DNA from: an uncultured Bacilli bacterium
GTDB taxonomy: Bacteria; Bacillota_I; Bacilli_A; RF39; UBA660
Direction of reading: 5' to 3'
Assembly (NCBI GenBank): GCA_944363785.1
Contig: CALVVF010000003.1
Coordinates: 7,011-71,010, forward strand
DNA length: 64,000 nt
Shown: one piece after another, positions 4,354 through 63,720 of the stretch
How positions within the stretch are numbered: the first letter of the stretch is position 1
How the letters are laid out: every line of letters begins with the position of its first letter
Position numbers and translations under genes: made by a program
Notes under the pieces: generated by a model
Seen by the model: the letters and a program-made list of their open reading frames with translations, nothing else
Told to the model about the DNA's origin: nothing
Database searches by the model: none

Positions 4354-5442
4354 ATGTTTTATAAATATTTAATGGTTAATGTAGAAGGTAAAGATGTTTT
4401 ATATTTATATTTAAATAATAAAGAAGAGTATGCCAGTGAATTTATTTTTCAACGTCATGAGAGGGAACCAGTTGAATTATACCGGAAGATTTCTCACTAT
4501 GTGGATAATATGGGAATTGATTTTTCTGGGAATATGATCTATGTCGTCGTTAATGATATTGTGGTAGTCTCTTTAGATTTAAGTAATTATGATAAAAGAA
4601 ATGATCGGTTAGTAGAGATCATTGGGGTTGAGAGTGGGTTAAGTAATAAGTTCATCGATTTAGATCGAAGTAGTGGTATCATCGAACGTTTAAAAATGGA
4701 TGATTATATTTTTGGAGTAGTCTCTGGGGAAATGCCCGCTGTATTTCATGATGAAACATTAAAAGCACAGGCTGTAATTGCTAGAACTTATGCTTCTAAA
4801 CGATTGAGTAAAGGTTTAAAAATCAAAGACTATAATGCAGTACAAATCTATCGTGATAAAAATTATTTAAAAGAAATTTGGGGAAATCATTATGATGAAT
4901 ATACTCAGAAAATAAAAAAGGCAATTAAAGATACTGAAAACGAGGTTCTTATGTTTGATGGAGATTATATTGATGTCTACTATCATTTATCTAGTAATGG
5001 TAAAACTGAGGATTCTAGTAATGTTTTGAAACTTGCTTATCCTTATTTAGTCAGCGTATCTAGTTTTTTTGATACTGATCGTAATTCAGTGAGTAGAAGA
5101 ATTGTACCTAACGACTATCTTAGTAAATTATTACAAGTTGAGATCACTAAAGATACTCCTGTTGAAATCTTAGTAAAAACAATTGGTCATCGAGTAAAAT
5201 ATATTAAATTTCAAGATAAAGTGTTTGATGGATTAATTTTAGCTAGAAGACTTGGATTAAACTCTAATGACTTTAGTATTAGTATTGAAGATGATTATAC
5301 AACTTTTACTACTCGTGGACATGGACATGGATTAGGTCTTAGTAAATATGGAGCTGAGGGAATGGCTAAAGCAGGCTACTCTTATCGGCAAATTTTAGAA
5401 CACTATTATCCAAATACCTATTTACAAAAAGAAGTGAAATAG
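4354..5442 (+). CDS. spoIID: SpoIID/LytB-domain protein (sporulation lytic transglycosylase-like)
   Basis: ETLKAQAVIARTYASKRL is the SpoIID/LytB signature. The track ORF starts at TTG 4273, inside the upstream gene. The ATG at 4354 has the RBS AGGTGATGAT, although the 4273 start would add a TM-like N-terminus. Confidence 0.7.
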   Translation: MFYKYLMVNVEGKDVLYLYLNNKEEYASEFIFQRHEREPVELYRKISHYVDNMGIDFSGNMIYVVVNDIVVVSLDLSNYDKRNDRLVEIIGVESGLSNKFIDLDRSSGIIERLKMDDYIFGVVSGEMPAVFHDETLKAQAVIARTYASKRLSKGLKIKDYNAVQIYRDKNYLKEIWGNHYDEYTQKIKKAIKDTENEVLMFDGDYIDVYYHLSSNGKTEDSSNVLKLAYPYLVSVSSFFDTDRNSVSRRIVPNDYLSKLLQVEITKDTPVEILVKTIGHRVKYIKFQDKVFDGLILARRLGLNSNDFSISIEDDYTTFTTRGHGHGLGLSKYGAEGMAKAGYSYRQILEHYYPNTYLQKEVK

Positions 5443-5494
5443 CATTAATGGTTAGTGTTTTTCTTTGGTTATTATTTTGGAAACAAATAAATAA

Positions 5495-5521
5495 GTAGTA
5501 TGCTTACTTTAACATACTACT
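5495..5521. terminator. bidirectional hairpin between convergent spoIID-like and htpG genes
   Basis: AGTAGTATG..CATACTACT is an inverted repeat. Confidence 0.45.
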
Positions 5522-5579
5522 CATTGGTTTATTCTATACTTTTCTTAGAGGAAGAATAGTGAATGATCATTATTCTTTT

Positions 5580-7463
5580 TTATTTTGAAATTACTTCACA
5601 GACTAGATTACTAATTTCAGTTGGATTTGTAATTGGAAGTCCTTCAATTAATCTAGCTTGAGCATATAATATTTTTGTATAATTTTCTAGTTCTTCTTTA
5701 TTATTTTGATATAAATCTTTTAACTTTTCAGCAATTGGGTGATTAGCATTAATTTCCATCACTGTAGTTGCTTTTACTTTTTCATCAGTTGGCATTGCAT
5801 TGATTACTTTTTCCATCTCTAAAGAAATTGCTCCTTCTGATGTTAAGCATACTGGATGGTTCTTTAGACGGTTGGTAAATCTGACATCTTGGATTTCTGT
5901 TTTTAAGGCTTCTTTCATACTTGCAAACATATCTTTAGCTTCTTCATTTTGTTTTTTCAAACTTTCTTTTTCTTCTTCAGTATCTAAATCTAGGTTATCT
6001 GTACTGACATTGACAAATTTTTTATTGTCGTATTCCGTTAATGTTTGCATAACGAATTCATCTACATAATCCGTTAGGTATAGAATTTCATAACCTTTAT
6101 CTTTTACTTTTTCTACTTGTGGAAGATCATCGATCTTATCTACAGTTTCTCCACAAGCATAATAAATTTTATCTTGGTTTTCTTTCATTCTAGAAATATA
6201 TTCTTTAAAAGTAACCATTTTCTTTTCTGTTGAAGAATAGAAAATCATTAAATCCTTTAATTTATCTTTATCTAATCCATAATTGTTGTAAATACCAAAT
6301 TTCAATTGCATACCGAAAGCTTTAAAGAATTTTTCATAATTGTCACGATCATTTTCTAGTAGATCAACTAACTCACTTTTAATTTTCTTTTCTATTGTTT
6401 TGGCAATTAATTGTAGTTTACGATCTTGTTGAAGCATTTCTCGAGAAATATTTAAAGATAAATCATCGCTATCTACTAAACCTTTTACAAAGCTAAAATA
6501 ATCAGGTAATAGATCTCCACATTTTTCCATGATCATTACTCCGTTTGCGTAAAGAGTTAAGCCTTTTTCAAATTCTTTAGAGTAATAGTCATAAGAAGCA
6601 TGACTAGGTATATAGAGTAAGGCATGGTAACTGCATTGTCCTTCAACAAAAGTATGAATGGTACGAAGTGGTTCTTCATAATCAAAGAATTTTTCTTGAT
6701 AGAAACGGTTATAATCTTCTTGTTTTAAATCCTTTTTATTTTTCTTCCAAATAGGAATCATACTGTTTAAAGTTTCTTCTTCGATATGAGACTCATATTC
6801 ATCTTTAGATCCTTCTTTTAAATGGCGATGTTCAATATCCATTTTAATTGGATAACGAATATAGTCTGAATATTTTTTGACAATTCCTTGAATACGGTAT
6901 GTCTCTAGAAACTCACTATATTTTTCTTCTTCGGTATCTTCTTTTATTTTTAGGATAATTGTAGTTCCTACTTCTTCTTTTTCACATTCTTCTATTGTAT
7001 ATCCATCTGCACCTTTAGATACCCAACAGTAGGCTTTATCACTATCTATTGATTTACTAATTACACTAACTTGTTCACTAACCATAAATGCTGAGTAGAA
7101 TCCGACACCGAATTGACCAATAATATCGATATCTTTTTTCTTTTCTGCTGTTTCTTTAAAAGCAAGTGATCCACTTTGGGCGATGGTACCTAGGTTATTT
7201 TCTAATTCTTCTAAGGTCATACCACAACCATTATCACTGATTGAAAGTTCTCTCTTTTCTTTATCAAGAGCTAACTTTATTTCTAAAGAATCTCTTTTTA
7301 CTTTGATCTTTTTATCTGTTAAAGATCGATAATATAATTTATCAATCGCATCACTAGCATTAGATATTAATTCTCGTAAGAAAATTTCTTTATTTGTATA
7401 AATCGAATGAATCATTAAATCTAAAAGTTTCTTGGATTCCGCTTTAAATTGTTTCTTTTTCAT
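5580..7463 (-). CDS. htpG: molecular chaperone HtpG (Hsp90)
   Basis: The IFLRELISNASDAIDKL ATPase motif is present, the protein is 627 aa, and it is colinear with HtpG. Confidence 0.95.
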   Translation of the reverse strand: MKKKQFKAESKKLLDLMIHSIYTNKEIFLRELISNASDAIDKLYYRSLTDKKIKVKRDSLEIKLALDKEKRELSISDNGCGMTLEELENNLGTIAQSGSLAFKETAEKKKDIDIIGQFGVGFYSAFMVSEQVSVISKSIDSDKAYCWVSKGADGYTIEECEKEEVGTTIILKIKEDTEEEKYSEFLETYRIQGIVKKYSDYIRYPIKMDIEHRHLKEGSKDEYESHIEEETLNSMIPIWKKNKKDLKQEDYNRFYQEKFFDYEEPLRTIHTFVEGQCSYHALLYIPSHASYDYYSKEFEKGLTLYANGVMIMEKCGDLLPDYFSFVKGLVDSDDLSLNISREMLQQDRKLQLIAKTIEKKIKSELVDLLENDRDNYEKFFKAFGMQLKFGIYNNYGLDKDKLKDLMIFYSSTEKKMVTFKEYISRMKENQDKIYYACGETVDKIDDLPQVEKVKDKGYEILYLTDYVDEFVMQTLTEYDNKKFVNVSTDNLDLDTEEEKESLKKQNEEAKDMFASMKEALKTEIQDVRFTNRLKNHPVCLTSEGAISLEMEKVINAMPTDEKVKATTVMEINANHPIAEKLKDLYQNNKEELENYTKILYAQARLIEGLPITNPTEISNLVCEVISK

Positions 7464-33244: not shown

Positions 33245-33366
33245 TTTGAATCCTCCCTTCGCCTATATCTAGTATAGACATGCTCCGTGTAAATAACCTG
33301 ATTCCAGTTAACAACTTAACCCGGTGTATCAGCAACCTTACACATCTAAGCAGCCACACGCCTAAG

Positions 33367-55305: not shown

Positions 55306-58119
55306 CTAGTTATCTAATATTTTCTTTAAGAATTCTCCTGTTGCCGATGCTTCTACTTGAGCAATTTCTTCTGGAGTTCCGCATGCGATTACTTCCCCAC
55401 CATTATCTCCACCATTTGGTCCTAAGTCGATAATGTAGTCTGCGCATTTGATTACATCTAGATTATGTTCAATGATTACTACGGTATCTTTATTATCTAC
55501 TATTTTATTAAATATTGCAAGTAGTCTTTTAATATCAGCAGAGTGAAGACCTGTAGTTGGCTCATCTAGGATGTAAAGAGCTCTACCTGTTGGTTTCTTT
55601 TGAAGTTCTTTGGCTAATTTTACTCTACCTGCCTCACCACCTGATAAAGTAGTAGCACTCTGTCCTAATTTAATATATCCAATTCCAACGTCTTCTAGAA
55701 CTTGTAATTTGTTTTTTATTTTAGGAACATTTTCAAAAAACTTTAATGCTTCTGAAACTCTCATATCCAAAACTTCCGCAATATTTTTATTTTTATACTT
55801 TATTCGCAATGTTTCGCTATTGTATCTTGTACCATGACATACTTCACAAGGAATATAAACATCTGGTAAAAAATGCATTTCAATTTTTTTGACACCATCA
55901 CCACGACATGCTTCACATCGTCCTCCTTTAACGTTGAAAGAAAAACGATTTTTTTCAAAGCCTGCCATTTTGGCTTCTTTGGTATTGGTAAACAAATCAC
56001 GGATTTCATCGAATACCCCAGTATAAGTAGCTGGATTACTACGTGGTGTTCTACCGATTGGGTTTTGGGAAATTTCAATTACTTTATCGATATTTTCTAA
56101 TCCTAATATTTTCTTATGCTTACCTGGCTTATCTTTACTTTTATACACTTTTGCATAGGCGGCTCGACATAGAATTTGATTAATTAACGTACTTTTTCCA
56201 CTACCTGATACACCAGTTACACAAGTTAGAGTACCTAATGGGATTTTGACATCGATATTTTTTAAATTGTTTTCACAAGCACCTTTTATTTCAATATACT
56301 TTTTGTTTCCTTTACGTCTAGTAGTTGGAGTTTCAATTTTCTCTTTTCCAGAAAGATATCTTCCCGTTATACTATTTTCATTTTGCATTACTTCTTCTGG
56401 AGTACCAGCTGCTACAATATAGCCCCCTTCTGATCCTGCTTTTGGACCTACATCGACAAGATAGTCACTCGCTAACATTGTATCGGTATCATGTTCAACG
56501 ACAATAAGGGTGTTGCCTAAGTCTCTCATTTCTAGTAATGACTTAATGAGCTTTTCATTATCTCGTTGGTGAAGACCAATGCTTGGTTCATCTAAAACAT
56601 AAAGGACACCAGTTAATTTGGATCCTATCTGCGTAGCTAGACGGATACGTTGGGCTTCTCCTCCTGATAATGTTCCCGCTGAACGACTTAGTGTTAAATA
56701 TTCTAATCCTACATTTTTTAAGAAAGATAATCGAGAAGAAATTTCTTTAATCAATAAGTTGGAAATTTCTTGTTGTGAAGGAGTAAGTTTTAAAGAAGCA
56801 AAAAACTCGATTAGCTGTTTAATGCTCATACAGGTTACTTCATAGATATTTTTTCCACCGATTAGAACAGATAAAACACTATCCTGTAGTCTACTACCGT
56901 GGCAAGTTTCACATTCGGTTTCAATCATATAATTTTCTAACCATTCTCTAACCCATTCACTACTCGTTTCCATGTATCTTCTTTCTAAGTTATTGATAAT
57001 TCCCTCATAATAATCTTTTTGATTATATAGGTTTCCACTTTTCGAACGATAGTTAAAGTGAATTAGTTCATCACTACCGTAAAAGATATAATTTTTTTCT
57101 TTGTTCGTTAACTTAGAAAATTCTTTATCCATATCGATTTTATAATGTTTACATAAGCACTCTAGACGTTTAAAATCCAAGGCTTCTGGATCATCGGTTA
57201 AAGTTTTAATCGCTCCATTATTTAAACATTTTGTCCCATCAGGAACAATTAATTCTGGATCCATTTTTAATTTAATTCCTAATCCTTTACAATCCGGACA
57301 GGCACCAAATGGGGCATTAAAACTAAACATCCTAGGTTCCAATTCAGGAAGAGAAAAATCACAATATGGGCAGGCAAAGCTCTCAGAAAATATGACTTCT
57401 TTATCCCCCATAAAATCAATTACTACCTTTCCATGAGAGAGCTTGGCTGCAATTTCTAATGACTCCATTAAACGGCTTCTACTATCTTCTTTTAACACAA
57501 TTCGGTCGACAATTACATCGATATCTGCTTTCTTATTTTTTTCAAGATTAATTTCTTCTCCTAAATCATAGGTTTCCCCATTTATTCGTACACGAACGTA
57601 TCCATCTTTTCTAAGTTCATCTAAAAGTTCTTTATGCGTTCCTTTTTCTCCATGTACAACTGGAGCCATAACGATCAATCTTGTTCCTAAAGGTCTTTCC
57701 ATGATTTTATTAACCATTTCTTCGATACTTTGAGAAGAAATAGGAACATGGTGATTAGGACAATATGGAGTTCCAATTCTAGCAAATAGAAGACGTAAGT
57801 AATCGTAGATTTCCGTTACTGTTCCTACTGTTGAACGTGGGTTTTTACTCGTTGTTTTTTGATCAATACTAATCGATGGGGATAATCCTTCGATCGAATC
57901 AACATCAGGTTTCTCTGTTCCTCCTAAAAATTGTCTAGCATAGGCAGATAAACTCTCAACATATCTTCTTTGTCCTTCTGCATAGATCGTATCAAAAGCA
58001 AGGGAGCTTTTCCCACTACCCGATACACCAGTCATCACAACTAATTTATTTTTAGGTAAGGTTAAATCTATATTTTTCAAATTATTTTCTCGTGCACCTT
58101 TAATTACTATTTGATCCAT
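55306..58119 (-). CDS. uvrA: excinuclease ABC subunit A
   Basis: The protein is 937 aa with two ABC modules (GVSGSGKSSL, twice) and zinc fingers. Confidence 0.97.
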   Translation of the reverse strand: MDQIVIKGARENNLKNIDLTLPKNKLVVMTGVSGSGKSSLAFDTIYAEGQRRYVESLSAYARQFLGGTEKPDVDSIEGLSPSISIDQKTTSKNPRSTVGTVTEIYDYLRLLFARIGTPYCPNHHVPISSQSIEEMVNKIMERPLGTRLIVMAPVVHGEKGTHKELLDELRKDGYVRVRINGETYDLGEEINLEKNKKADIDVIVDRIVLKEDSRSRLMESLEIAAKLSHGKVVIDFMGDKEVIFSESFACPYCDFSLPELEPRMFSFNAPFGACPDCKGLGIKLKMDPELIVPDGTKCLNNGAIKTLTDDPEALDFKRLECLCKHYKIDMDKEFSKLTNKEKNYIFYGSDELIHFNYRSKSGNLYNQKDYYEGIINNLERRYMETSSEWVREWLENYMIETECETCHGSRLQDSVLSVLIGGKNIYEVTCMSIKQLIEFFASLKLTPSQQEISNLLIKEISSRLSFLKNVGLEYLTLSRSAGTLSGGEAQRIRLATQIGSKLTGVLYVLDEPSIGLHQRDNEKLIKSLLEMRDLGNTLIVVEHDTDTMLASDYLVDVGPKAGSEGGYIVAAGTPEEVMQNENSITGRYLSGKEKIETPTTRRKGNKKYIEIKGACENNLKNIDVKIPLGTLTCVTGVSGSGKSTLINQILCRAAYAKVYKSKDKPGKHKKILGLENIDKVIEISQNPIGRTPRSNPATYTGVFDEIRDLFTNTKEAKMAGFEKNRFSFNVKGGRCEACRGDGVKKIEMHFLPDVYIPCEVCHGTRYNSETLRIKYKNKNIAEVLDMRVSEALKFFENVPKIKNKLQVLEDVGIGYIKLGQSATTLSGGEAGRVKLAKELQKKPTGRALYILDEPTTGLHSADIKRLLAIFNKIVDNKDTVVIIEHNLDVIKCADYIIDLGPNGGDNGGEVIACGTPEEIAQVEASATGEFLKKILDN

Positions 58120-58191
58120 AAACTACTCTCCTTTTTTCGTTTTCCTATTATAACATAAAAAAACTTTATTTCTTCTTTTTTCTTTAGACTT

Positions 58192-58220
58192 ATTATAATA
58201 TTAAAACAAATGTTCGTCAA
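58192..58220 (-). promoter_or_regulatory. uvrA promoter TTGACG-N17-TATAAT with LexA(Cheo)-box-like GAACATTTGTTT in the spacer
   Basis: It was read on the minus strand. The Cheo consensus is GAAC-N4-GTTC; here the second half-site is GTTT. Confidence 0.55.
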
Positions 58221-58236
58221 TAATGTTCTTTCAAAA

Positions 58237-58262
58237 TAGAAAAAAAACACATTTCTGTGTTT
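58237..58262 (-). terminator. terminator after the 106-aa gene, upstream of the uvrA promoter
   Basis: AAACACA-GAAA-TGTGTTT is followed by TTTTTT. Confidence 0.65.
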
Positions 58263-58581
58263 ATGCTACTCTCTTTAATACTTTAACATTTTCGGTATCA
58301 ATAACATTAGCTTCTTCGATACCTGTTCTAGCAATGATCTCACTGATCTTATTGCTTGTAATATGCCAACTTATCTCCTTTGGATCCATATAGCTAGCAA
58401 TTGGTACAATTTTTTTACAGTAGTGATATTCATATGGTTTAATCGGTTTTTGATTTACTCCATCTTTATGTAGTACTACTACTTTAGGAGGCGTTTGATT
58501 TTCATTGATCCCAGCATTTGGATTTAGTGTTTCTGCAAAACCTAAAAATATTTTCGCAGTGTCGTATCTTAAATTCTTCAT
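58261..58581 (-). CDS. hypothetical protein (106 aa)
   Basis: It is an ORF with no recognisable motif and has its own terminator. Confidence 0.35.
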   Translation of the reverse strand: MKNLRYDTAKIFLGFAETLNPNAGINENQTPPKVVVLHKDGVNQKPIKPYEYHYCKKIVPIASYMDPKEISWHITSNKISEIIARTGIEEANVIDTENVKVLKRVA

Positions 58582-58749
58582 TCGTTTCTCCCCTTTCTAC
58601 ATAGCCTATTTCTGCATAGGAGAGATATTATAGCGCATTATTGGATTTTTGTCAATCTTTTTCTAGGTGTTCCTTTAGGAGTTTACGGTATATCAAAATC
58701 ACACTTTTTCTTTCTTAGAAGTAATTAATAAAGATTACTAGTCAAGTCA

Positions 58750-59484
58750 TTATAATCTCTTATTGATTATTTTTTGACTGTAATCATCTAAATTTTCTTC
58801 CATACTAAGGTTTTTTTCTAAATAAAGGAATAAATTATGTTGAGTATTTAATAAGTCATATCTCATTTTTCGAAAAATTCCCGTTATTTCTTTTTCACTT
58901 AAATTATGTTGGACTCCATAATACTTTATTCTAGGAAATAGTATATGATATAAGAAAAATTCACAAAATTTCCTGTTGTTAGCTGTCTCTGTATTTATAT
59001 TGGCGTGATAATAGTCTCCAAAATCTATTAAACACATTTCTTCTTCATTACTAATATAATTGGATTCTCGTAAATCATCGATTGCGATTTTTTCTTTTCC
59101 TAAAACAGAAAAATCAGCTTGTAAATATGAACACTCTGTTAATAATTTCTCTTTTGAATACGTATATACTGAACCCTGAACTTTTTCTTTAAATTCTGTA
59201 AGATAGCCTATATTTTTGTGATCTGTATATTCATATAATAGTTCAGTCGGTGTTATAATTCGATTTAATTTTATTGTTTGTAGTTGCTTTAGTATCTCTT
59301 CTTCTGCTACTTTCTTTCGTGGAACTTTGTAATATATTTTTAATGCTTGATCAAGAAAACGATATACTCTACCTTCTTCTCCTTGATCAACAAAGGGTAG
59401 CAGACTTCCATGATAAAAAACATTATCTTCTTCTTCGATAAATATTTTCCCAGTTTCTGATATAATTTTTCGCAAACATACCAC
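58750..59484 (-). CDS. atypical protein-kinase-like protein with intact catalytic motifs
   Basis: The Gly-loop and Lys are GEEGRVYRF..ALKIY. The catalytic loop is IDDLRESNYI (compare HRDLKPEN), followed by CLIDFGD as the DFG. The track start is a GTG, so the true start is uncertain. Confidence 0.5.
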   Translation of the reverse strand: MVCLRKIISETGKIFIEEEDNVFYHGSLLPFVDQGEEGRVYRFLDQALKIYYKVPRKKVAEEEILKQLQTIKLNRIITPTELLYEYTDHKNIGYLTEFKEKVQGSVYTYSKEKLLTECSYLQADFSVLGKEKIAIDDLRESNYISNEEEMCLIDFGDYYHANINTETANNRKFCEFFLYHILFPRIKYYGVQHNLSEKEITGIFRKMRYDLLNTQHNLFLYLEKNLSMEENLDDYSQKIINKRL

Positions 59485-59661
59485 CTCAAATATCGCTTAT
59501 TCTACCATACTTTTATTCTTTTTTCACTTTAATCTTTATTTTTTTGTTCGTATAGATGCTTAATCTTTAAAATATACGGTAAATAGTATTGCCTTAAAAA
59601 GTAGTAAAAGCGATGGCGAAGAAAAACTTGACCAAATAGGAGTAGTATTTCTATCATAGAA

Positions 59662-59700
59662 AAACTAAAGACGATATGTTCTTGTCTTTAGTTTTTATTT
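59662..59700. terminator. palindromic terminator downstream of the radical SAM gene
   Basis: AAACTAAAGAC-N11-GTCTTTAGTTTTT. Confidence 0.55.
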
Positions 59701-59737
59701 ATTTTCCATTATATAAAATTCAGTTACTATATTTTAT

Positions 59738-60580
59738 TTAGCGATTAAATTGCTCTTTGAAATTACAATGCTTACAAAGATCTTCTCCTACTTTTCGATT
59801 TTCAAAACCTTTACGCATTGTTTCTATTTTGGGATTTTCTAAAATACGTTCAATATTCATGGTTAAAATATTACCAAGATTAATGTTTCCTTCACCATCT
59901 AGACAACAGGGAACTACTGTTCCATCTGATAATACACCAATATGGTCTTTCAATGCATGACAGTATCCTTTACTTTCATAATAACTATTGTCTACATCTG
60001 GCCAGATAAATTGATTGGCTTTATTAATATAAATATTACTATCTATTTGAATATTAGTATCCGTATATATTCTTTCCACAGTTCCTATAGATAGATGATA
60101 ATATTCCATAATTTTATTCACAGTTCTTGTGGATTTTGCATCAAAACTGAAGTCTTTTAATGTCCATAGTCGATAAACAACAGGCATATGAGGAGATAAT
60201 AGTTCTACAGCTTCAAATATATCCTTTAAATATTCTTCTTTATGATTTTCAGAGTGAAGAGATATATTAAGCTGACGAACTATACCACTTTCTAATAAGA
60301 TTTTAGCTTTTTCCTTTAATAAGACTCCATTCGTTGTGATATTAACCTGTTTATGATATTTTTTACAGATTGCTAAAATTTTGTCTAATTTAGGATGTAG
60401 GAGCGGTTCTCCTTTAATATGCAAATATACATAATCTGTATAGGAATCTAATTTTTTGATAATTTTTTCAAATTCCCCAACACTTAAGCTTCTCTTTGGG
60501 CGATTACTGATAGAACAAAAACTACAAGATAGATTACAAATATTGGAAATTTCAATATATACCCTTTTGAATTTTTTCAT
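59738..60580 (-). CDS. radical SAM enzyme with C-terminal SPASM/twitch-like Cys cluster
   Basis: The N-terminal CNLSCSFC is a CxxxCxxC motif. The C-terminus has GVLSDGTVVPCCLDGEGNINLGNIL..CKHC. Confidence 0.7.
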   Translation of the reverse strand: MKKFKRVYIEISNICNLSCSFCSISNRPKRSLSVGEFEKIIKKLDSYTDYVYLHIKGEPLLHPKLDKILAICKKYHKQVNITTNGVLLKEKAKILLESGIVRQLNISLHSENHKEEYLKDIFEAVELLSPHMPVVYRLWTLKDFSFDAKSTRTVNKIMEYYHLSIGTVERIYTDTNIQIDSNIYINKANQFIWPDVDNSYYESKGYCHALKDHIGVLSDGTVVPCCLDGEGNINLGNILTMNIERILENPKIETMRKGFENRKVGEDLCKHCNFKEQFNR

Positions 60581-60726
60581 ATTAGTACTTACTTCTTTCT
60601 ACCCCTTAAAAAGGTGTCTATTAGACATTATAGCGAAATTTTTTATTCCTGAAAAGTTTTTTCGTATTTATTCGATATATTTTTGACAGATGAAGCTAAT
60701 TTTTTCTTTCTTCTTTATCAATTTGA

Positions 60727-60760
60727 TAAAAAAAGTAGACTCTTTTGATTGAATCTACTT
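60727..60760 (-). terminator. rho-independent terminator of uvrB
   Basis: On the minus strand it reads AAGTAGATTC-loop-GAGTCTACTT followed by TTTTTTT. Confidence 0.6.
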
Positions 60761-60946
60761 GATATGTTATGCTTTTTACTTATGTAGAATATTTATTTTT
60801 AGTAATCATTACTTCTAATCTTTCCATGATTAAATGGAGGATTTTCTAACTGAGATTTTTCTATTAAAATATTGATGTAATTTTCAACTTTTTTATCTGC
60901 CACATATAGAACGGAAAAAGCTTTCAAGATATTATTCTCTTATTTT

Positions 60947-62911
60947 CTATTCATTTTCTGCTTTCATTTCAAATAAAATGTCTCGTAGTTCCATCGCTCT
61001 TTCAAAGTCAAGTTCACGAGCGGCTTTTTTCATTTCCTCTTCGATATTTTGAATCGTTTTAAGAATTTCTTTTTTATCTACTTTTTGGGCTTTCTTTCCT
61101 TTTGTTTCTTTAGTTTCATCAACATTACTGATCAATTCACGAATTTCTTTTTGGATGGTTTTAGGTACAATGTGATGTTCTTGATTATAGGCTTCCTGAA
61201 TTTCTCGACGACGTTTAGTTTCATCGATTGCATGACGCATACTATCTGTTATTTTATCAGCATACATGATACAGTGTCCTTCGGCATTTCGTGCACAACG
61301 ACCTATAGTTTGAATTAAACTACGTTCGCTTCTCAAAAATCCTTCTTTATCCGCATCGAGTATCGCAATTAAGCTTACTTCAGGAATATCAATTCCTTCT
61401 CTTAATAAATTAATTCCCACGATACAATCATATTTACCGAGACGAAGATCACGGATAATACGCATTCTTTCTAATGTCTTTACCTCGCTATGGAGATAGG
61501 CTACTTTAATATCTATCTCTTTTAAGTAGTTTGTTAATTCTTCAGCCATACGGATAGTAAGAGTTGTAATCAATGTTCTTTCATTCTTGGCTATACGTTC
61601 TTTAATCTCAGCAATTAAGTCATCGATTTGTCCTTCTGTCTTACGTACTTCAATTGTCGGATCTAATAATCCGGTCGGACGAATAATCTGTTCAATAAAT
61701 TTACCACCAGTCAAGCCTAATTCATAATCACCAGGTGTAGCAGATACATAAATTGCTTGATTTAATTTATGCTCAAATTCATCAAATTTTAATGGTCGAT
61801 TGTCTAAGGCACTAGGTAACCTAAAACCATATTCTACTAAATTCATTTTACGTGCTCGGTCACCATTATACATACCACGTACTTGAGGAAGGGTCACATG
61901 AGATTCGTCGACGATTAAAAGGAAATCGTCAGGGAAGAAATCGATTAATGTAGTAGGTGTCTCCCCTTCTCCTCTTAGAGACATATGGCGAGAATAATTT
62001 TCTATGCCATGACAGAAACCAGTTTCTTCTAGCATTTCAATATCGTAGTTCGTTCGTTGTTCCAATCGTTCGGCTGCAAGCAACTTGTTGTTGTCTTTTA
62101 ATTCTTTCAAACGAACTGCGAGTTCTTCTTTGATTCTTCTGATGGCTTCATGTAGTTTATCATCACTAGTTACGAAGTGACTAGCTGGAAAAATACTGAT
62201 CGTTTTCTTATTTTGAATAATCGCTCCAGTTAAAATATCAATTTCACTGATTCGATCTACTTCATCATCAAAAAACTCAATTCTAATTCCTTTAGTACTT
62301 TGATAAGCTGGTATGATTTCTAAGGTGTCTCCTTTAACTCGAAAAGTTCCACGTTTAAAATCAAAATCGTTTCTTTCATACATCATTTCTACTAGTTTAG
62401 CTAGAATTTGATTTCTACTGATAATATCCCCTACATTAATGGTTAACATTTTCTTTAAGTACTCTTCAACTTCACCAATACCATAGATACAAGAAACACT
62501 CGCAACAACAATAACATCTCGTCTAGAAAGTAATGCGCTGGTAGCAGAATGACGCAACTCATCAATTTCGTCGTTGATGGAGGAATCCTTTTCAATATAG
62601 GTATCTGTAGAAGGAACATAGGCTTCTGGCTGATAATAATCATAGTAGGAAACAAAATACTCAACTCGATTTTCAGGGAATAGTTCTTTAAATTCAGAGT
62701 ATAGTTGCCCCGCTAATGTTTTATTATGAGCTAAAATCAGAGTTGGTTTATCTACTTCTTGAATTACATTTGCCATCGTGAAAGTCTTACCAGTTCCTGT
62801 TGCCCCTAGGAGAACTTGATTTTTCTTCCCTTCTTTTATTCCTGCGACCAACTCTTTAATCGCTTCTGGTTGATCACCACTTGGTTTAAATTTTGATACT
62901 AAATTGAACAT
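60947..62911 (-). CDS. uvrB: excinuclease ABC subunit B
   Basis: The protein is 654 aa. The helicase motifs include GATGTGKT, and the C-terminal UVR domain is [12 protein letters not shown]. Confidence 0.97.
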
Positions 62912-63270
62912 AAATTCACCCCTTGATAGATTTTTATAGAATTACCTTTATCATTTGTATATACTTTTTAAACATAATTAATATTAACCGTCAATTTCAC
63001 GGAATATTTTATCATCTTTTTTTTCATTTCACAATAGAACAAAGTTCATATTTCTTTGCCAAAATTTTCAACTATGTTGTAAGCAATAAAAAAACATAAC
63101 CTAAATTCCATAGAAGTTATGTTTACCTATATTTTAAATACTATTTTTTTAGATTCAACAATCTTCTCTAATAGATTTGATCAATATACTGTTTTTACCG
63201 GTCTAGTCCATTTTTCTCTTATTTTACTCTATACTGTATTATTCAACTAAATAAAATTAGAGATGATTTT

Positions 63271-63720
63271 TTAATGAATATTTTGGTCCATTTCTAAGTC
63301 ATAATCTAATTTCTCTTGTTTTCTAATAAAGGGATTAATATATTCATAATAATCTGGCTTGGGATGTAATTCGAATGCTTCATAACTTCTTACGTACTTT
63401 TCATTGTTCATGATAATTATTTCTTCATGAAGAAAATTAAAGACTATACTGATAAAAAAAGAAACAATAAGGCAAATGGGGATTTCTATGGCTAGTAAGA
63501 AAATACTCATCGGAATACCTTCTTTTTTATCTTGATTCTTATTTATATAGATCAGTGAATAGGTAATGAGAAAAATATTAATAAGAAAAAGTAAAGCATA
63601 GTATACCCATCCTAAAAAATCATAACCTATACTGTTTAGAATTATTTTTATTATTAAAAACAAGACAATTACTAGTAGTAATCCTATTATTCCTATTAGA
63701 TACCAATTTCTTTTTTTCAT
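63271..63720 (-). CDS. hypothetical membrane protein
   Basis: It is 149 aa with three hydrophobic helices. Confidence 0.4.
   Translation of the reverse strand: MKKRNWYLIGIIGLLLVIVLFLIIKIILNSIGYDFLGWVYYALLFLINIFLITYSLIYINKNQDKKEGIPMSIFLLAIEIPICLIVSFFISIVFNFLHEEIIIMNNEKYVRSYEAFELHPKPDYYEYINPFIRKQEKLDYDLEMDQNIH

Follow-up and report, generated by a model that had tools for sequence, protein, structure and literature searches.

A Twitch-type radical SAM gene behind uvrB in uncultured gut Bacilli, in a locus of composite origin

Introduction

The described enzymes that come closest to the protein reported here are BtrN, the 2-deoxy-scyllo-inosamine dehydrogenase of the butirosin pathway and the founding Twitch enzyme (PDB 4M7T/4M7S), and BlsE, a cytosylglucuronate decarboxylase (PDB 7VOB). 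To these we add MoaA, the GTP 3',8-cyclase; both BlsE and MoaA are Twitch/SPASM-type enzymes acting on nucleosides or nucleotides. To our knowledge, spore photoproduct lyase is the sole radical SAM enzyme known for DNA repair. A precedent is set by an earlier radical SAM enzyme, belonging to a different family, that was assigned to DNA repair by its regulation and context alone.

Here we analyse a 64,000-nucleotide stretch of DNA from an uncultured Bacilli bacterium (hereafter the window), in which a gene for a radical SAM enzyme lies between uvrB and uvrA. A search of the literature on radical SAM/SPASM enzymes in connection with uvrB, excinuclease, excision or DNA repair found nothing on this family.

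Results

The features of the locus are compiled in Table 1. The distance between uvrB and uvrA is 2,827 nt, and a preliminary description of the same DNA, which had listed three intervening ORFs with their motifs, a 2.8-kb spacing and several promoter- and terminator-like sites, was confirmed on all these points, with every ORF on the minus strand. The uvrB copy in the locus entry for this strain (L001) is identical, with the Pfam UvrB domain set found there, and UvrB identity to the related loci amounts to 70-86%.

Table 1. Features of the uvrB-uvrA region, in coordinates of the window
Feature	Position	Strand	Remarks
uvrB	60947-62911	minus	654 aa; ORF; anchors the conserved uvrB-radical SAM pair on its upstream side
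42-aa ORF, 5' relic of GT8 gene	60799-60927	minus	DNA homology to L090 and N-terminal alignment
Terminator-like hairpin followed by T-run, 3' of uvrB	60733-60760	minus	consensus match only
Promoter-like TTTTCA-17-TATAAT before radical SAM gene	60627-60655	minus	10/12; consensus match only
Radical SAM enzyme	59738-60580	minus	280 aa; Twitch (truncated SPASM) domain
Palindrome with 15-bp stem, just past radical SAM stop codon	59660-59696	both	terminator-like either way
Segment missing in L090, carrying the kinase-like ORF	58666-59678	minus	1,013 nt; blastn and junction alignment
Kinase-like orphan ORF	58750-59484	minus	244 aa from GTG, 241 aa from TTG at 59475
Promoter TTGACA-17-TATAAT before small gene	58627-58655	minus	12/12; consensus match only
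Small protein gene	58261-58581	minus	106 aa
uvrA promoter-like TTGACG-17-TATAAT	58192-58220	minus	11/12; consensus match only
LexA-box-like CGAACATTTGTTTT, overlapping uvrA promoter-like site	58203-58216	minus	
uvrA	55306-58119	minus	937 aa; downstream boundary of the variable slot

The separate terminators and promoters proposed earlier are there as sites, but they are consensus matches only, and the total of promoter-like sites in the region does not exceed the expectation from shuffled sequence. No riboswitch or leader RNA was detected, Rfam giving zero matches at E ≤ 1 in 57900-63300. Upstream of uvrA, a GAAC-N4-GTTT element recurs in 10 of 35 related loci at -65 to -96, and one further related locus carries the mirror form AAAC-N4-GTTC at -80. 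SOS regulation was considered and rejected, the LexA-type box GAAC-N4-GTTC being absent both 5' of uvrB in the linked loci and 5' of stand-alone radical SAM genes.

The radical SAM protein contains CNLSCSFC (residues 15-22), VVPCC (222-226), LGNIL (235-239) and CKHC (269-272), and shows both the CX3CX2C motif of the radical SAM superfamily and its partial TIM-barrel core fold (AF2 model, pLDDT 81). The core begins at about residue 5, without an N-terminal recognition domain. Pfam matched Radical_SAM (PF04055; E 1.1e-18, 68 bits against a cut-off of 29.5 bits) and, above the gathering score, SPASM (E 5.3e-13), which bears out the earlier view that this is a radical SAM enzyme whose C-terminal domain is of the SPASM family. 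The C-terminal cluster had also been called SPASM-like; this is right at the level of the Pfam domain match, but the conserved cysteines number five and not seven, and the full motif CX9-15GX4C...CX2CX5CX3C...C was not found, with CX5CX3C lacking. The arrangement is that of a Twitch domain, namely one cysteine, then another in a β-hairpin, then a distal CxxC, as in BtrN-like enzymes with one auxiliary cluster. Across 82 family members eight cysteines are invariant (C15, C19 and C22 together with C207, C225, C226, C269 and C272), a pattern that would fit a SAM cluster held by the first three and one auxiliary cluster held by the other five.

The closest structures are BtrN and BlsE, with BtrN as the top PDB match (profile E 5e-15, Twitch segment included; Foldseek E 7.5e-13). 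No NCBIfam family was reached at its cut-off; MoaA models rank among the top matches there, in the N-terminal core only (first ~115 residues; 63 vs 325 bits). Neither activase nor QueE-type families matched above threshold, in line with the earlier expectation that this is not a housekeeping enzyme of those types, and by neither sequence nor fold is the protein a member of the spore photoproduct lyase family. It belongs to a large, widespread and uncharacterised family with thousands of database homologues, about 8,000 in all, whose cultured carriers include Lysinibacillus, Paenibacillus and Clostridium.

The best 80 genome matches, each a species-level genome from uncultured gut Bacilli, include 40 with the radical SAM gene downstream of uvrB, a distribution at odds with the recent insert that had been assumed. 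The gap between the two genes is 50 nt or less in 29 of the 40 linked genomes, typically from -13 to +17 nt, and six out of six metagenomic relatives (54-100% identity) display an identical uvrB-radical SAM arrangement. This junction stays tight down to 43% radical SAM identity, while the neighbouring slot turns over freely. Adjacency to uvrB across such divergent genomes fits co-transcription within an excision-repair operon; to judge from the sequences, the tight spacing suggests co-transcription, and stop and start codons, where they overlap, suggest translational coupling. In a neighbour-joining tree, every uvrB-linked gene falls in one clade, within which unlinked genes are nested, and in four genomes (L039, L045, L050 and L066) uvrB is followed by the radical SAM gene, a holin-like gene and lgt, uvrA being missing. 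The radical SAM gene is an old resident, vertically conserved and not patchy.

Two points on gene order in these genomes speak against a repair role: the linkage to uvrB could stem from one ancestral event, and the holin-like gene and lgt, neither of which is a repair gene, are as syntenic with uvrA in the same genomes.

The interval that separates uvrA from the radical SAM gene can be as short as 28 nt and as long as 5.9 kb. The genes carried in it are unrelated (ABC transporter, HAD hydrolase, histidine kinase, pilin-like protein, DUF7666 and HA-domain proteins) and gave no signal with PADLOC or PHROG. Comparison with L090, which is the closest of the relatives sampled (88% identity in the radical SAM protein), separates the layers of the present locus. 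DNA homology between the two runs from uvrB into the first ~140 nt of a GT8 gene and then ends, L090 positions 4790-5720 being missing from the window; the 42-aa ORF aligns with the N-terminus of the GT8 protein, whose gene is intact in L090, with 41% identity over 37 aa. The 367-nt gap between uvrB and the radical SAM gene, of a kind that most relatives lack, is the relic of a deleted family-8 glycosyltransferase gene. On the other side, the palindrome at 59660-59696 lies at the left edge of a 1-kb insertion, and the counterpart of the 58627-58655 promoter lies, in L090, directly past the radical SAM stop codon. A 20-nt inverted repeat (80%) around the kinase-like ORF is probably due to chance in DNA of 28% GC. 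The three-gene insertion put forward in the preliminary description is refuted because the three genes occur together in this strain (L001) only; the locus is a layered composite and not a cassette.

Genes of the linked clade that have left uvrB adjoin uvrC with an overlapping start (L049), stand behind dnaD-nth in four species, or follow a Ham1/RdgB-type gene (L078). Repair or nucleotide-hygiene genes (uvrC, nth, Ham1) consequently account for 3 of ~8 secondary contexts in this clade; by a rough estimate, chance would yield this about 0.5% of the time if 5% of contexts carry such a gene. In the distant clade (~40% identity, invariant residues kept), the gene has sbcD-sbcC as neighbours once (L065), three Paenibacillus genomes have a DinG-like helicase adjoining or near it, and five loci have an RlmD/TrmA-type RNA methyltransferase. 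The uvrC, nth, Ham1, sbcDC and DinG-like neighbours hint at a nucleic-acid or DNA-damage role. Neighbours in the distant clade are otherwise essentially random (195 clusters among 231 neighbours): uvrA, uvrB, uvrC, nth and sbcCD were found near none of 80 independent metagenome loci, and Pfam counts of the neighbours yielded no repair family. Across the whole family, then, the survey found neither a repair-gene association nor damage-inducible regulation. A basic charge, which might have pointed to DNA binding, was rejected as a family trait, the distant-clade mean pI being 7.3, near neutral. Other neighbours, namely murG, Amj, bacA and glycosyltransferases, are cell-envelope genes.

These contexts can also be read in another way, which we consider a serious contender while leaning against it: the enzyme would serve housekeeping, on an envelope sugar or sugar nucleotide, a cofactor or a protein, and its position behind uvrB would reflect inherited order only. 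All of the closest structures, BtrN, BlsE, SpeY, DesII and AbmM, belong to enzymes whose substrates are sugars, cyclitols or nucleosides; the envelope neighbours (murG, Amj, bacA and GT2, plus GT8 in L090) point the same way, as do the random surroundings in the distant clade with repair genes at 0 of 80 independent loci, the lack of LexA-type boxes, the near-neutral distant-clade proteins and the equal synteny of the holin-like gene and lgt with uvrA. Against it stand the uvrB junction, which keeps its -13 to +17 nt down to 43% identity and survives the loss of uvrA, and the presence of uvrC, nth and Ham1 in 3 of ~8 secondary contexts; moreover, the envelope neighbours are not clearly above chance.

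The 106-aa protein, for which Pfam gave no match, belongs to a very small family limited to one subclade, with no conserved cysteine, no PqqD-like fold and no known fold. Its gene lies directly 3' of the radical SAM gene in most carrier genomes, that of the most divergent homologue included. The family is missing from most uvrB-linked loci, and one homologue is located elsewhere, on a 4.8-kb contig without a radical SAM gene. This distribution bears on the proposal, also made in the preliminary description, that the enzyme matures peptides or proteins; its substrate would then be the 106-aa protein or a short ORF that escaped notice. Peptide maturation is indeed the task of many SPASM/Twitch enzymes, the structural matches include SkfB, SuiB and EpeE, and the small gene sits directly behind the radical SAM gene in most of its carriers, but we judge the proposal very improbable: the enzyme lacks an N-terminal recognition domain and any PqqD-like match and is a one-cluster Twitch protein instead of a full SPASM enzyme, its neighbours are inconsistent, the small partner has neither a conserved cysteine nor a PqqD-like fold, is absent from most uvrB-linked loci and occurs once on a contig devoid of the radical SAM gene, in some uvrB-linked loci the radical SAM gene and uvrA are only 28-140 nt apart, and no conserved protease or exporter lies nearby. 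As had been said before, no precursor-peptide ORF is apparent, the scan of 58120-60950 for short ORFs rich in Cys, Ser or Thr finding none; nor is there an ORF of at least 40 aa in the 28-140-nt radical SAM-uvrA gaps of many relatives. A peptide-maturase cluster was rejected on these grounds, with recognition domain, precursor ORF and conserved partner all wanting.

The kinase-like ORF (database entry P0122 in its 241-aa version, TTG start at 59475) shows a glycine loop (GEEGRVY, 35-41), a β3 lysine (ALKIY, 47-51; lysine 49), an αC glutamate (EEEILKQL, 61-68), D-x4-N (IDDLRESN, 135-142; D137-x4-N142) and DFG (IDFGD, 153-157; DFG 155-157), all in kinase-like spacing. All eight of its PDB matches are protein kinases in register, albeit weak (E 0.13-0.39), and the Lyn and CHK2 alignments place the motifs in the same register. 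Pfam gave no match at E ≤ 1, and the Bud32 model of NCBIfam matched at E 0.019 (14.5 bits against a 125-bit cut-off). The earlier description of an active-looking kinase-like protein hence holds for the full set of motifs and for the weak PDB matches, all of them kinases, but no kinase family matches the protein significantly. Among 5.8 billion protein clusters no homologue was found, the protein being the sole member of its own cluster, and a word-indexed protein search returned almost nothing for it or for the 106-aa protein. A mobile origin was rejected, tblastn finding no match in phages or plasmids. Neither the kinase-like nor the 106-aa protein would be a required partner of the radical SAM enzyme.

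That the radical SAM and kinase-like genes make up a viperin-like antiviral or nucleotide-modifying defence pair in a variable island is barely credible: PADLOC pVip models, including 'viperins associated with kinases', do match residues 7-115, and the radical SAM-uvrA slot does act like a variable island, but the pVip match covers the generic core only and is far weaker than the BtrN-type Twitch match, the kinase-like ORF occurs in this strain alone, the radical SAM gene shows vertical conservation instead of a patchy distribution, and the slot cargo is silent in PADLOC and PHROG. No member of the radical SAM family was found in 2.9 million viral contigs (best match 29% identical), and a recurrent pairing of it with kinases in other genomes was not seen in 170 loci. 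Both the defence island and the viperin-plus-kinase candidate were rejected, PADLOC and PHROG having produced generic radical SAM core matches only and viral members being absent.

Discussion

Overall, the locus was built up in layers. The radical SAM gene is the old resident behind uvrB, kept even where uvrA has left, and the interval between it and uvrA is an insertion hotspot, in which one subclade gained the ~100-aa protein. In this genome, the GT8 gene that stood behind uvrB was lost, leaving the 367-nt gap and its own sites, and a 1.0-kb segment with the orphan kinase-like ORF entered between the radical SAM and small genes. Taken as a whole, the explanation that joins this composite origin to an enzyme acting on nucleotides or nucleic acids is one that we hold with about even confidence.

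As to the enzyme itself, the CX3CX2C cluster would split SAM to give a 5'-deoxyadenosyl radical, which would remove hydrogen at a C-H bond of the sugar type; the electron would be handled, as in BtrN, by the one auxiliary cluster. The substrate would most likely be a nucleotide or nucleic acid, a proposition for which we see an equal chance of being right or wrong. The narrower version, in which the enzyme works on a DNA lesion or repair intermediate together with UvrB, is tentative, and we think it rather unlikely. Narrower still, and doubtful to a greater degree, is the idea that the Twitch enzyme coupled to uvrB stands beside spore photoproduct lyase as a second kind of DNA-repairing radical SAM enzyme, working with the excision machinery of anaerobic gut Bacilli; it would then reverse or pre-process sugar-radical lesions favoured by low oxygen, for example 8,5'-cyclopurine deoxynucleosides. 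We know of no other route than excision repair by which 8,5'-cyclopurine lesions are removed. Their chemistry mirrors the C-C bond that MoaA forms in GTP.

The gene has been kept in a lineage of uncultured gut Bacilli with small genomes, despite extensive gene loss. Should the linkage to uvrB be functional, it would point to oxygen-independent radical chemistry feeding or complementing excision repair in anaerobes. Should it be inherited order, the locus would still serve as a caution, an apparent cassette being made up of a conserved gene, a hotspot and a gene relic.

Comparison with known systems places the parts of the locus at different distances from what has been described. The kinase-like ORF resembles Bud32/RIO-type kinases in its small size, glycine loop, lysine, αC glutamate, D-x4-N and DFG, and in the faint Bud32 match, but differs from them in having no significant family match, no homologue and no KEOPS or ribosome-biogenesis context. 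The radical SAM enzyme formerly assigned to repair from its context is not among the 25 best NCBIfam matches of our protein, and the locus described here has neither the uracil-DNA-glycosylase-like partner nor a LexA-type box in front of the radical SAM gene. With BtrN, the protein shares a length of 250-280 aa, the absence of an extra N-terminal domain, the N-terminal CX3CX2C, and the layout of C...PC followed by CxxC. It is not an orthologue, however, being ~20-24% identical; its family adds an invariant cysteine (the CC pair 225/226), and its gene is chromosomal and vertically inherited, with no aminoglycoside pathway around it, in a repair operon and not in a biosynthetic cluster. BlsE and MoaA show that the fold can take hydrogen from a ribose-type carbon, although no molybdopterin or blasticidin genes lie near the radical SAM gene. 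With SplB, finally, the likeness consists of radical SAM chemistry and, if the hint from context holds, of the repair of DNA damage.

Layout of the interval between uvrB and uvrA

As claimed in the preliminary description, uvrB and uvrA are set apart, by 2,827 nt, and the protein motifs it cited were all recovered at the residues given for them. The terminators and promoters it proposed were likewise present in a consensus scan, as pattern matches only: a hairpin with a T-run 3' of uvrB, a 10/12 promoter match ahead of the radical SAM gene, a 15-bp palindrome 3' of that gene, a perfect 12/12 promoter ahead of the 106-aa gene, and an 11/12 promoter ahead of uvrA. A 41-nt stretch that takes in the -10 box with its flanking bases occurs, at 71% identity, in the promoter regions of both the small gene and the radical SAM gene (GCGCTATAATATCT versus TCGCTATAATGTCT). 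Beyond uvrA, a holin_4_2-type membrane protein gene, lgt and a thioredoxin-reductase-like gene follow in that order on the minus strand. A ribosomal protein leader was the sole Rfam match above threshold in the window, and no tRNA genes were found in its 64 kb.

Features of the locus and other elements, in window positions
Feature	Position	Strand	Basis
uvrB	60947-62911	minus	ORF
42-aa ORF directly 3' of uvrB	60799-60927	minus	alignment with GT8 N-terminus
41-nt stretch, radical SAM gene promoter region	60623-60663
Radical SAM ORF, 280 aa	59738-60580	minus	ORF + Pfam
1,013-nt insertion relative to L090	58666-59678		DNA alignment
Inverted repeat, two 20-nt arms	58718-58737 / 59530-59549		80% complementary
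Kinase-like ORF, 244 aa	58750-59484	minus	ORF + motifs
41-nt stretch, small gene promoter region	58623-58663
Small-protein ORF, 106 aa	58261-58581	minus	ORF
LexA-box-like element	58203-58216	minus	GAAC-N4-GTTT
uvrA	55306-58119	minus	ORF
S10-Clostridia ribosomal protein leader	33259-33356	minus	Rfam RF03136, 40.9 bits

A Twitch-type radical SAM enzyme

The 280-aa protein, which has thousands of homologues, matched the Pfam families Radical_SAM (E = 1.1e-18) and SPASM (E = 5.3e-13), while no NCBIfam family came near its cut-off, the best matches spanning the generic N-terminal core only. Conservation was assessed on an alignment of 21 relatives and later on 82 family members out of 80 species-level genomes, in which eight cysteines were invariant: C15, C19 and C22 of the SAM-cluster motif, and C207, C225, C226, C269 and C272. 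Since these five C-terminal cysteines come without a CX5CX3C segment, the pattern is, judged from sequence, that of a one-cluster Twitch domain and not of a seven-cysteine SPASM domain. Structural evidence agrees: BtrN was the top Foldseek match (E = 7.5e-13) of the AF2 model (pLDDT 81), and the family profile matched BtrN in two segments (E = 5e-15), the second of which aligns the Twitch cysteines. The radical SAM assignment made initially was thus upheld, with the SPASM part narrowed to the Twitch subclass. The catalytic core starts at about residue 5, leaving no N-terminal peptide-recognition domain. The enzyme belongs neither to the housekeeping activase or QueE families, in keeping with the preliminary description, nor to the spore photoproduct lyases.

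Lineage-wide linkage to uvrB

In all six metagenomic relatives looked up (54-100% identity), uvrB was followed directly by the radical SAM gene. In a genome scan restricted to one genome per species and the best 80 loci, uvrB lay upstream in 40, with a gap of at most 50 nt in 29 (typically -13 to +17 nt), and this conserved adjacency, close enough for an operon, suggests one. All uvrB-linked loci came from uncultured gut Bacilli, some of which were deposited under the names "Tenericutes" or "Mollicutes". The linkage looks ancestral, as a neighbour-joining tree placed every uvrB-linked gene within one clade (hereafter the linked clade), with a few unlinked genes nested there. In four species (L039, L045, L050 and L066) uvrA has gone while the uvrB-radical SAM pair is kept. 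In four other species (L027, L028, L032 and L036) a conserved 237-239-aa ORF separates uvrB from the radical SAM gene, so this junction can take cargo too.

Composite history of the interval

Comparison with L090, the closest relative sampled (radical SAM protein 88% identical), argues against the three-gene maturase insertion originally put forward. In L090, the order is uvrB, a family-8 glycosyltransferase (GT8) gene, the radical SAM gene and the 106-aa gene, the promoter of the latter lying directly 3' of the radical SAM stop codon. Homology to L090 extends beyond the end of uvrB over the initial ~140 nt of the GT8 gene and then ends, about 930 nt being deleted in the window. The 42-aa ORF is the 5' relic of this glycosyltransferase gene, and, given the homology break and the ORF alignment, the 367 nt between uvrB and the radical SAM gene, an unusual gap with terminator- and promoter-like sites of its own, are the scar of the deleted gene and do not mark the border of an inserted cassette. 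The 1,013-nt segment that carries the kinase-like ORF is, by DNA alignment, an insertion relative to L090.

The kinase-like ORF had no Pfam match, was not found in phage or plasmid collections, and among 5.8 billion protein clusters matched only its own, of three near-identical sequences. "Active-looking kinase-like" is a reasonable label, given a complete and correctly spaced motif set, with membership unproven: its only PDB sequence matches were protein kinases, individually non-significant (E = 0.13-0.39) and in register across the αC helix, catalytic loop and DFG motif, and the match to Bud32 was also non-significant (E = 0.019). The inverted repeat flanking this ORF inside the insertion may delimit a small mobile unit or be due to chance in DNA of 28% GC.

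Between the radical SAM gene and uvrA lies a hypervariable slot (28 nt to 5.9 kb), an insertion hotspot within a repair operon. Its cargo includes an ABC transporter, HAD hydrolase, histidine kinase, pilin-like, DUF7666 and HA-domain proteins, an opposite-strand glycosyltransferase, and, in L091, six unannotated ORFs. Runs of same-strand slot ORFs in L091 (6962-10463, six consecutive), L003 (7365-8009) and L025 (6896-12726) had no match in Pfam, PADLOC or PHROG.

The 106-aa protein had no Pfam match and only seven matches among 1.84 billion representatives in an exhaustive HMMER search. An HMM built from these seven detected the family in the slot of eight further locus types, all in the subclade nearest the window. 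P0128, the homologue that diverges most (36% identity), shows the order uvrB, radical SAM, small gene, uvrA, while another, P0127, is located elsewhere, on a 4.8-kb contig without a radical SAM gene.

Possible damage regulation of uvrA

The LexA-box-like element, CGAACATTTGTTTT, overlaps the -35 of uvrA's own promoter. In 10 of 35 related loci (L003-5, L010, L033, L035, L038, L044, L058 and L091) uvrA is preceded by an element of this type at ~-65 to -96 nt, in L044 as the mirror form AAAC-N4-GTTC, while none was found upstream of uvrB or of stand-alone radical SAM genes. This recurrence upstream of uvrA and not of uvrB suggests that in this lineage uvrA is damage-regulated and the uvrB-radical SAM pair not.

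Gene contexts and possible function

Within the linked clade, radical SAM genes away from uvrB overlap the start of uvrC (L049, 6001-8542; GIY-YIG and UvrC RNase H domains), directly follow dnaD-nth (four species), or directly follow a Ham1/RdgB-type nucleotide pyrophosphatase gene (L078). Three repair-type contexts of about eight secondary ones are, on a rough estimate, unlikely by chance (about 0.5%, assuming such a gene in 5% of contexts). The distant clade (~40% identity; Clostridia, Paenibacillus, Lysinibacillus and others) has one sbcD-sbcC neighbour (L065) and, in three Paenibacillus genomes, a DinG-like helicase adjoining or nearby. Such settings point tentatively to a role with nucleic acids or DNA damage. 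The association with repair genes is not, however, family-wide, as no uvrA, uvrB, uvrC, nth or sbcCD occurred in 80 distant-clade metagenome loci sampled independently. The 231 neighbouring proteins of this sample fell into 195 clusters, and the neighbour seen most often, in five related loci, was an opposite-strand RNA methyltransferase of RlmD/TrmA type. Across the loci compared, neighbours of the radical SAM gene also include envelope genes (murG, Amj, bacA, glycosyltransferases), and proteins of the distant clade are close to neutral in charge.

The enzyme would cleave SAM reductively at its radical SAM cluster and abstract hydrogen from a sugar-type C-H bond, one auxiliary cluster handling the electron. 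The chances that its substrate is a nucleotide or nucleic acid seem evenly balanced; that it acts, more specifically, on a DNA lesion or repair intermediate together with UvrB is a rather doubtful proposal. The main rival, that the enzyme has a housekeeping function outside repair and lies by uvrB through inherited gene order, is a real if lesser possibility: the holin-like gene and lgt are kept beside uvrA just as faithfully in the same genomes. A peptide-maturase system is strongly opposed by the lack of any conserved partner family-wide, and the enzyme fell outside the maturase families; such a lack fits a self-contained enzyme on a universal substrate.

Sugars, cyclitols or nucleosides are the substrates of the closest enzymes with solved structures. 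A literature search found nothing on a radical SAM gene in a uvrB operon, and with its radical SAM core and BtrN-type Twitch domain, the enzyme represents an uncharacterised family of Twitch radical SAM enzymes whose lineage-wide linkage to uvrB is previously undescribed.
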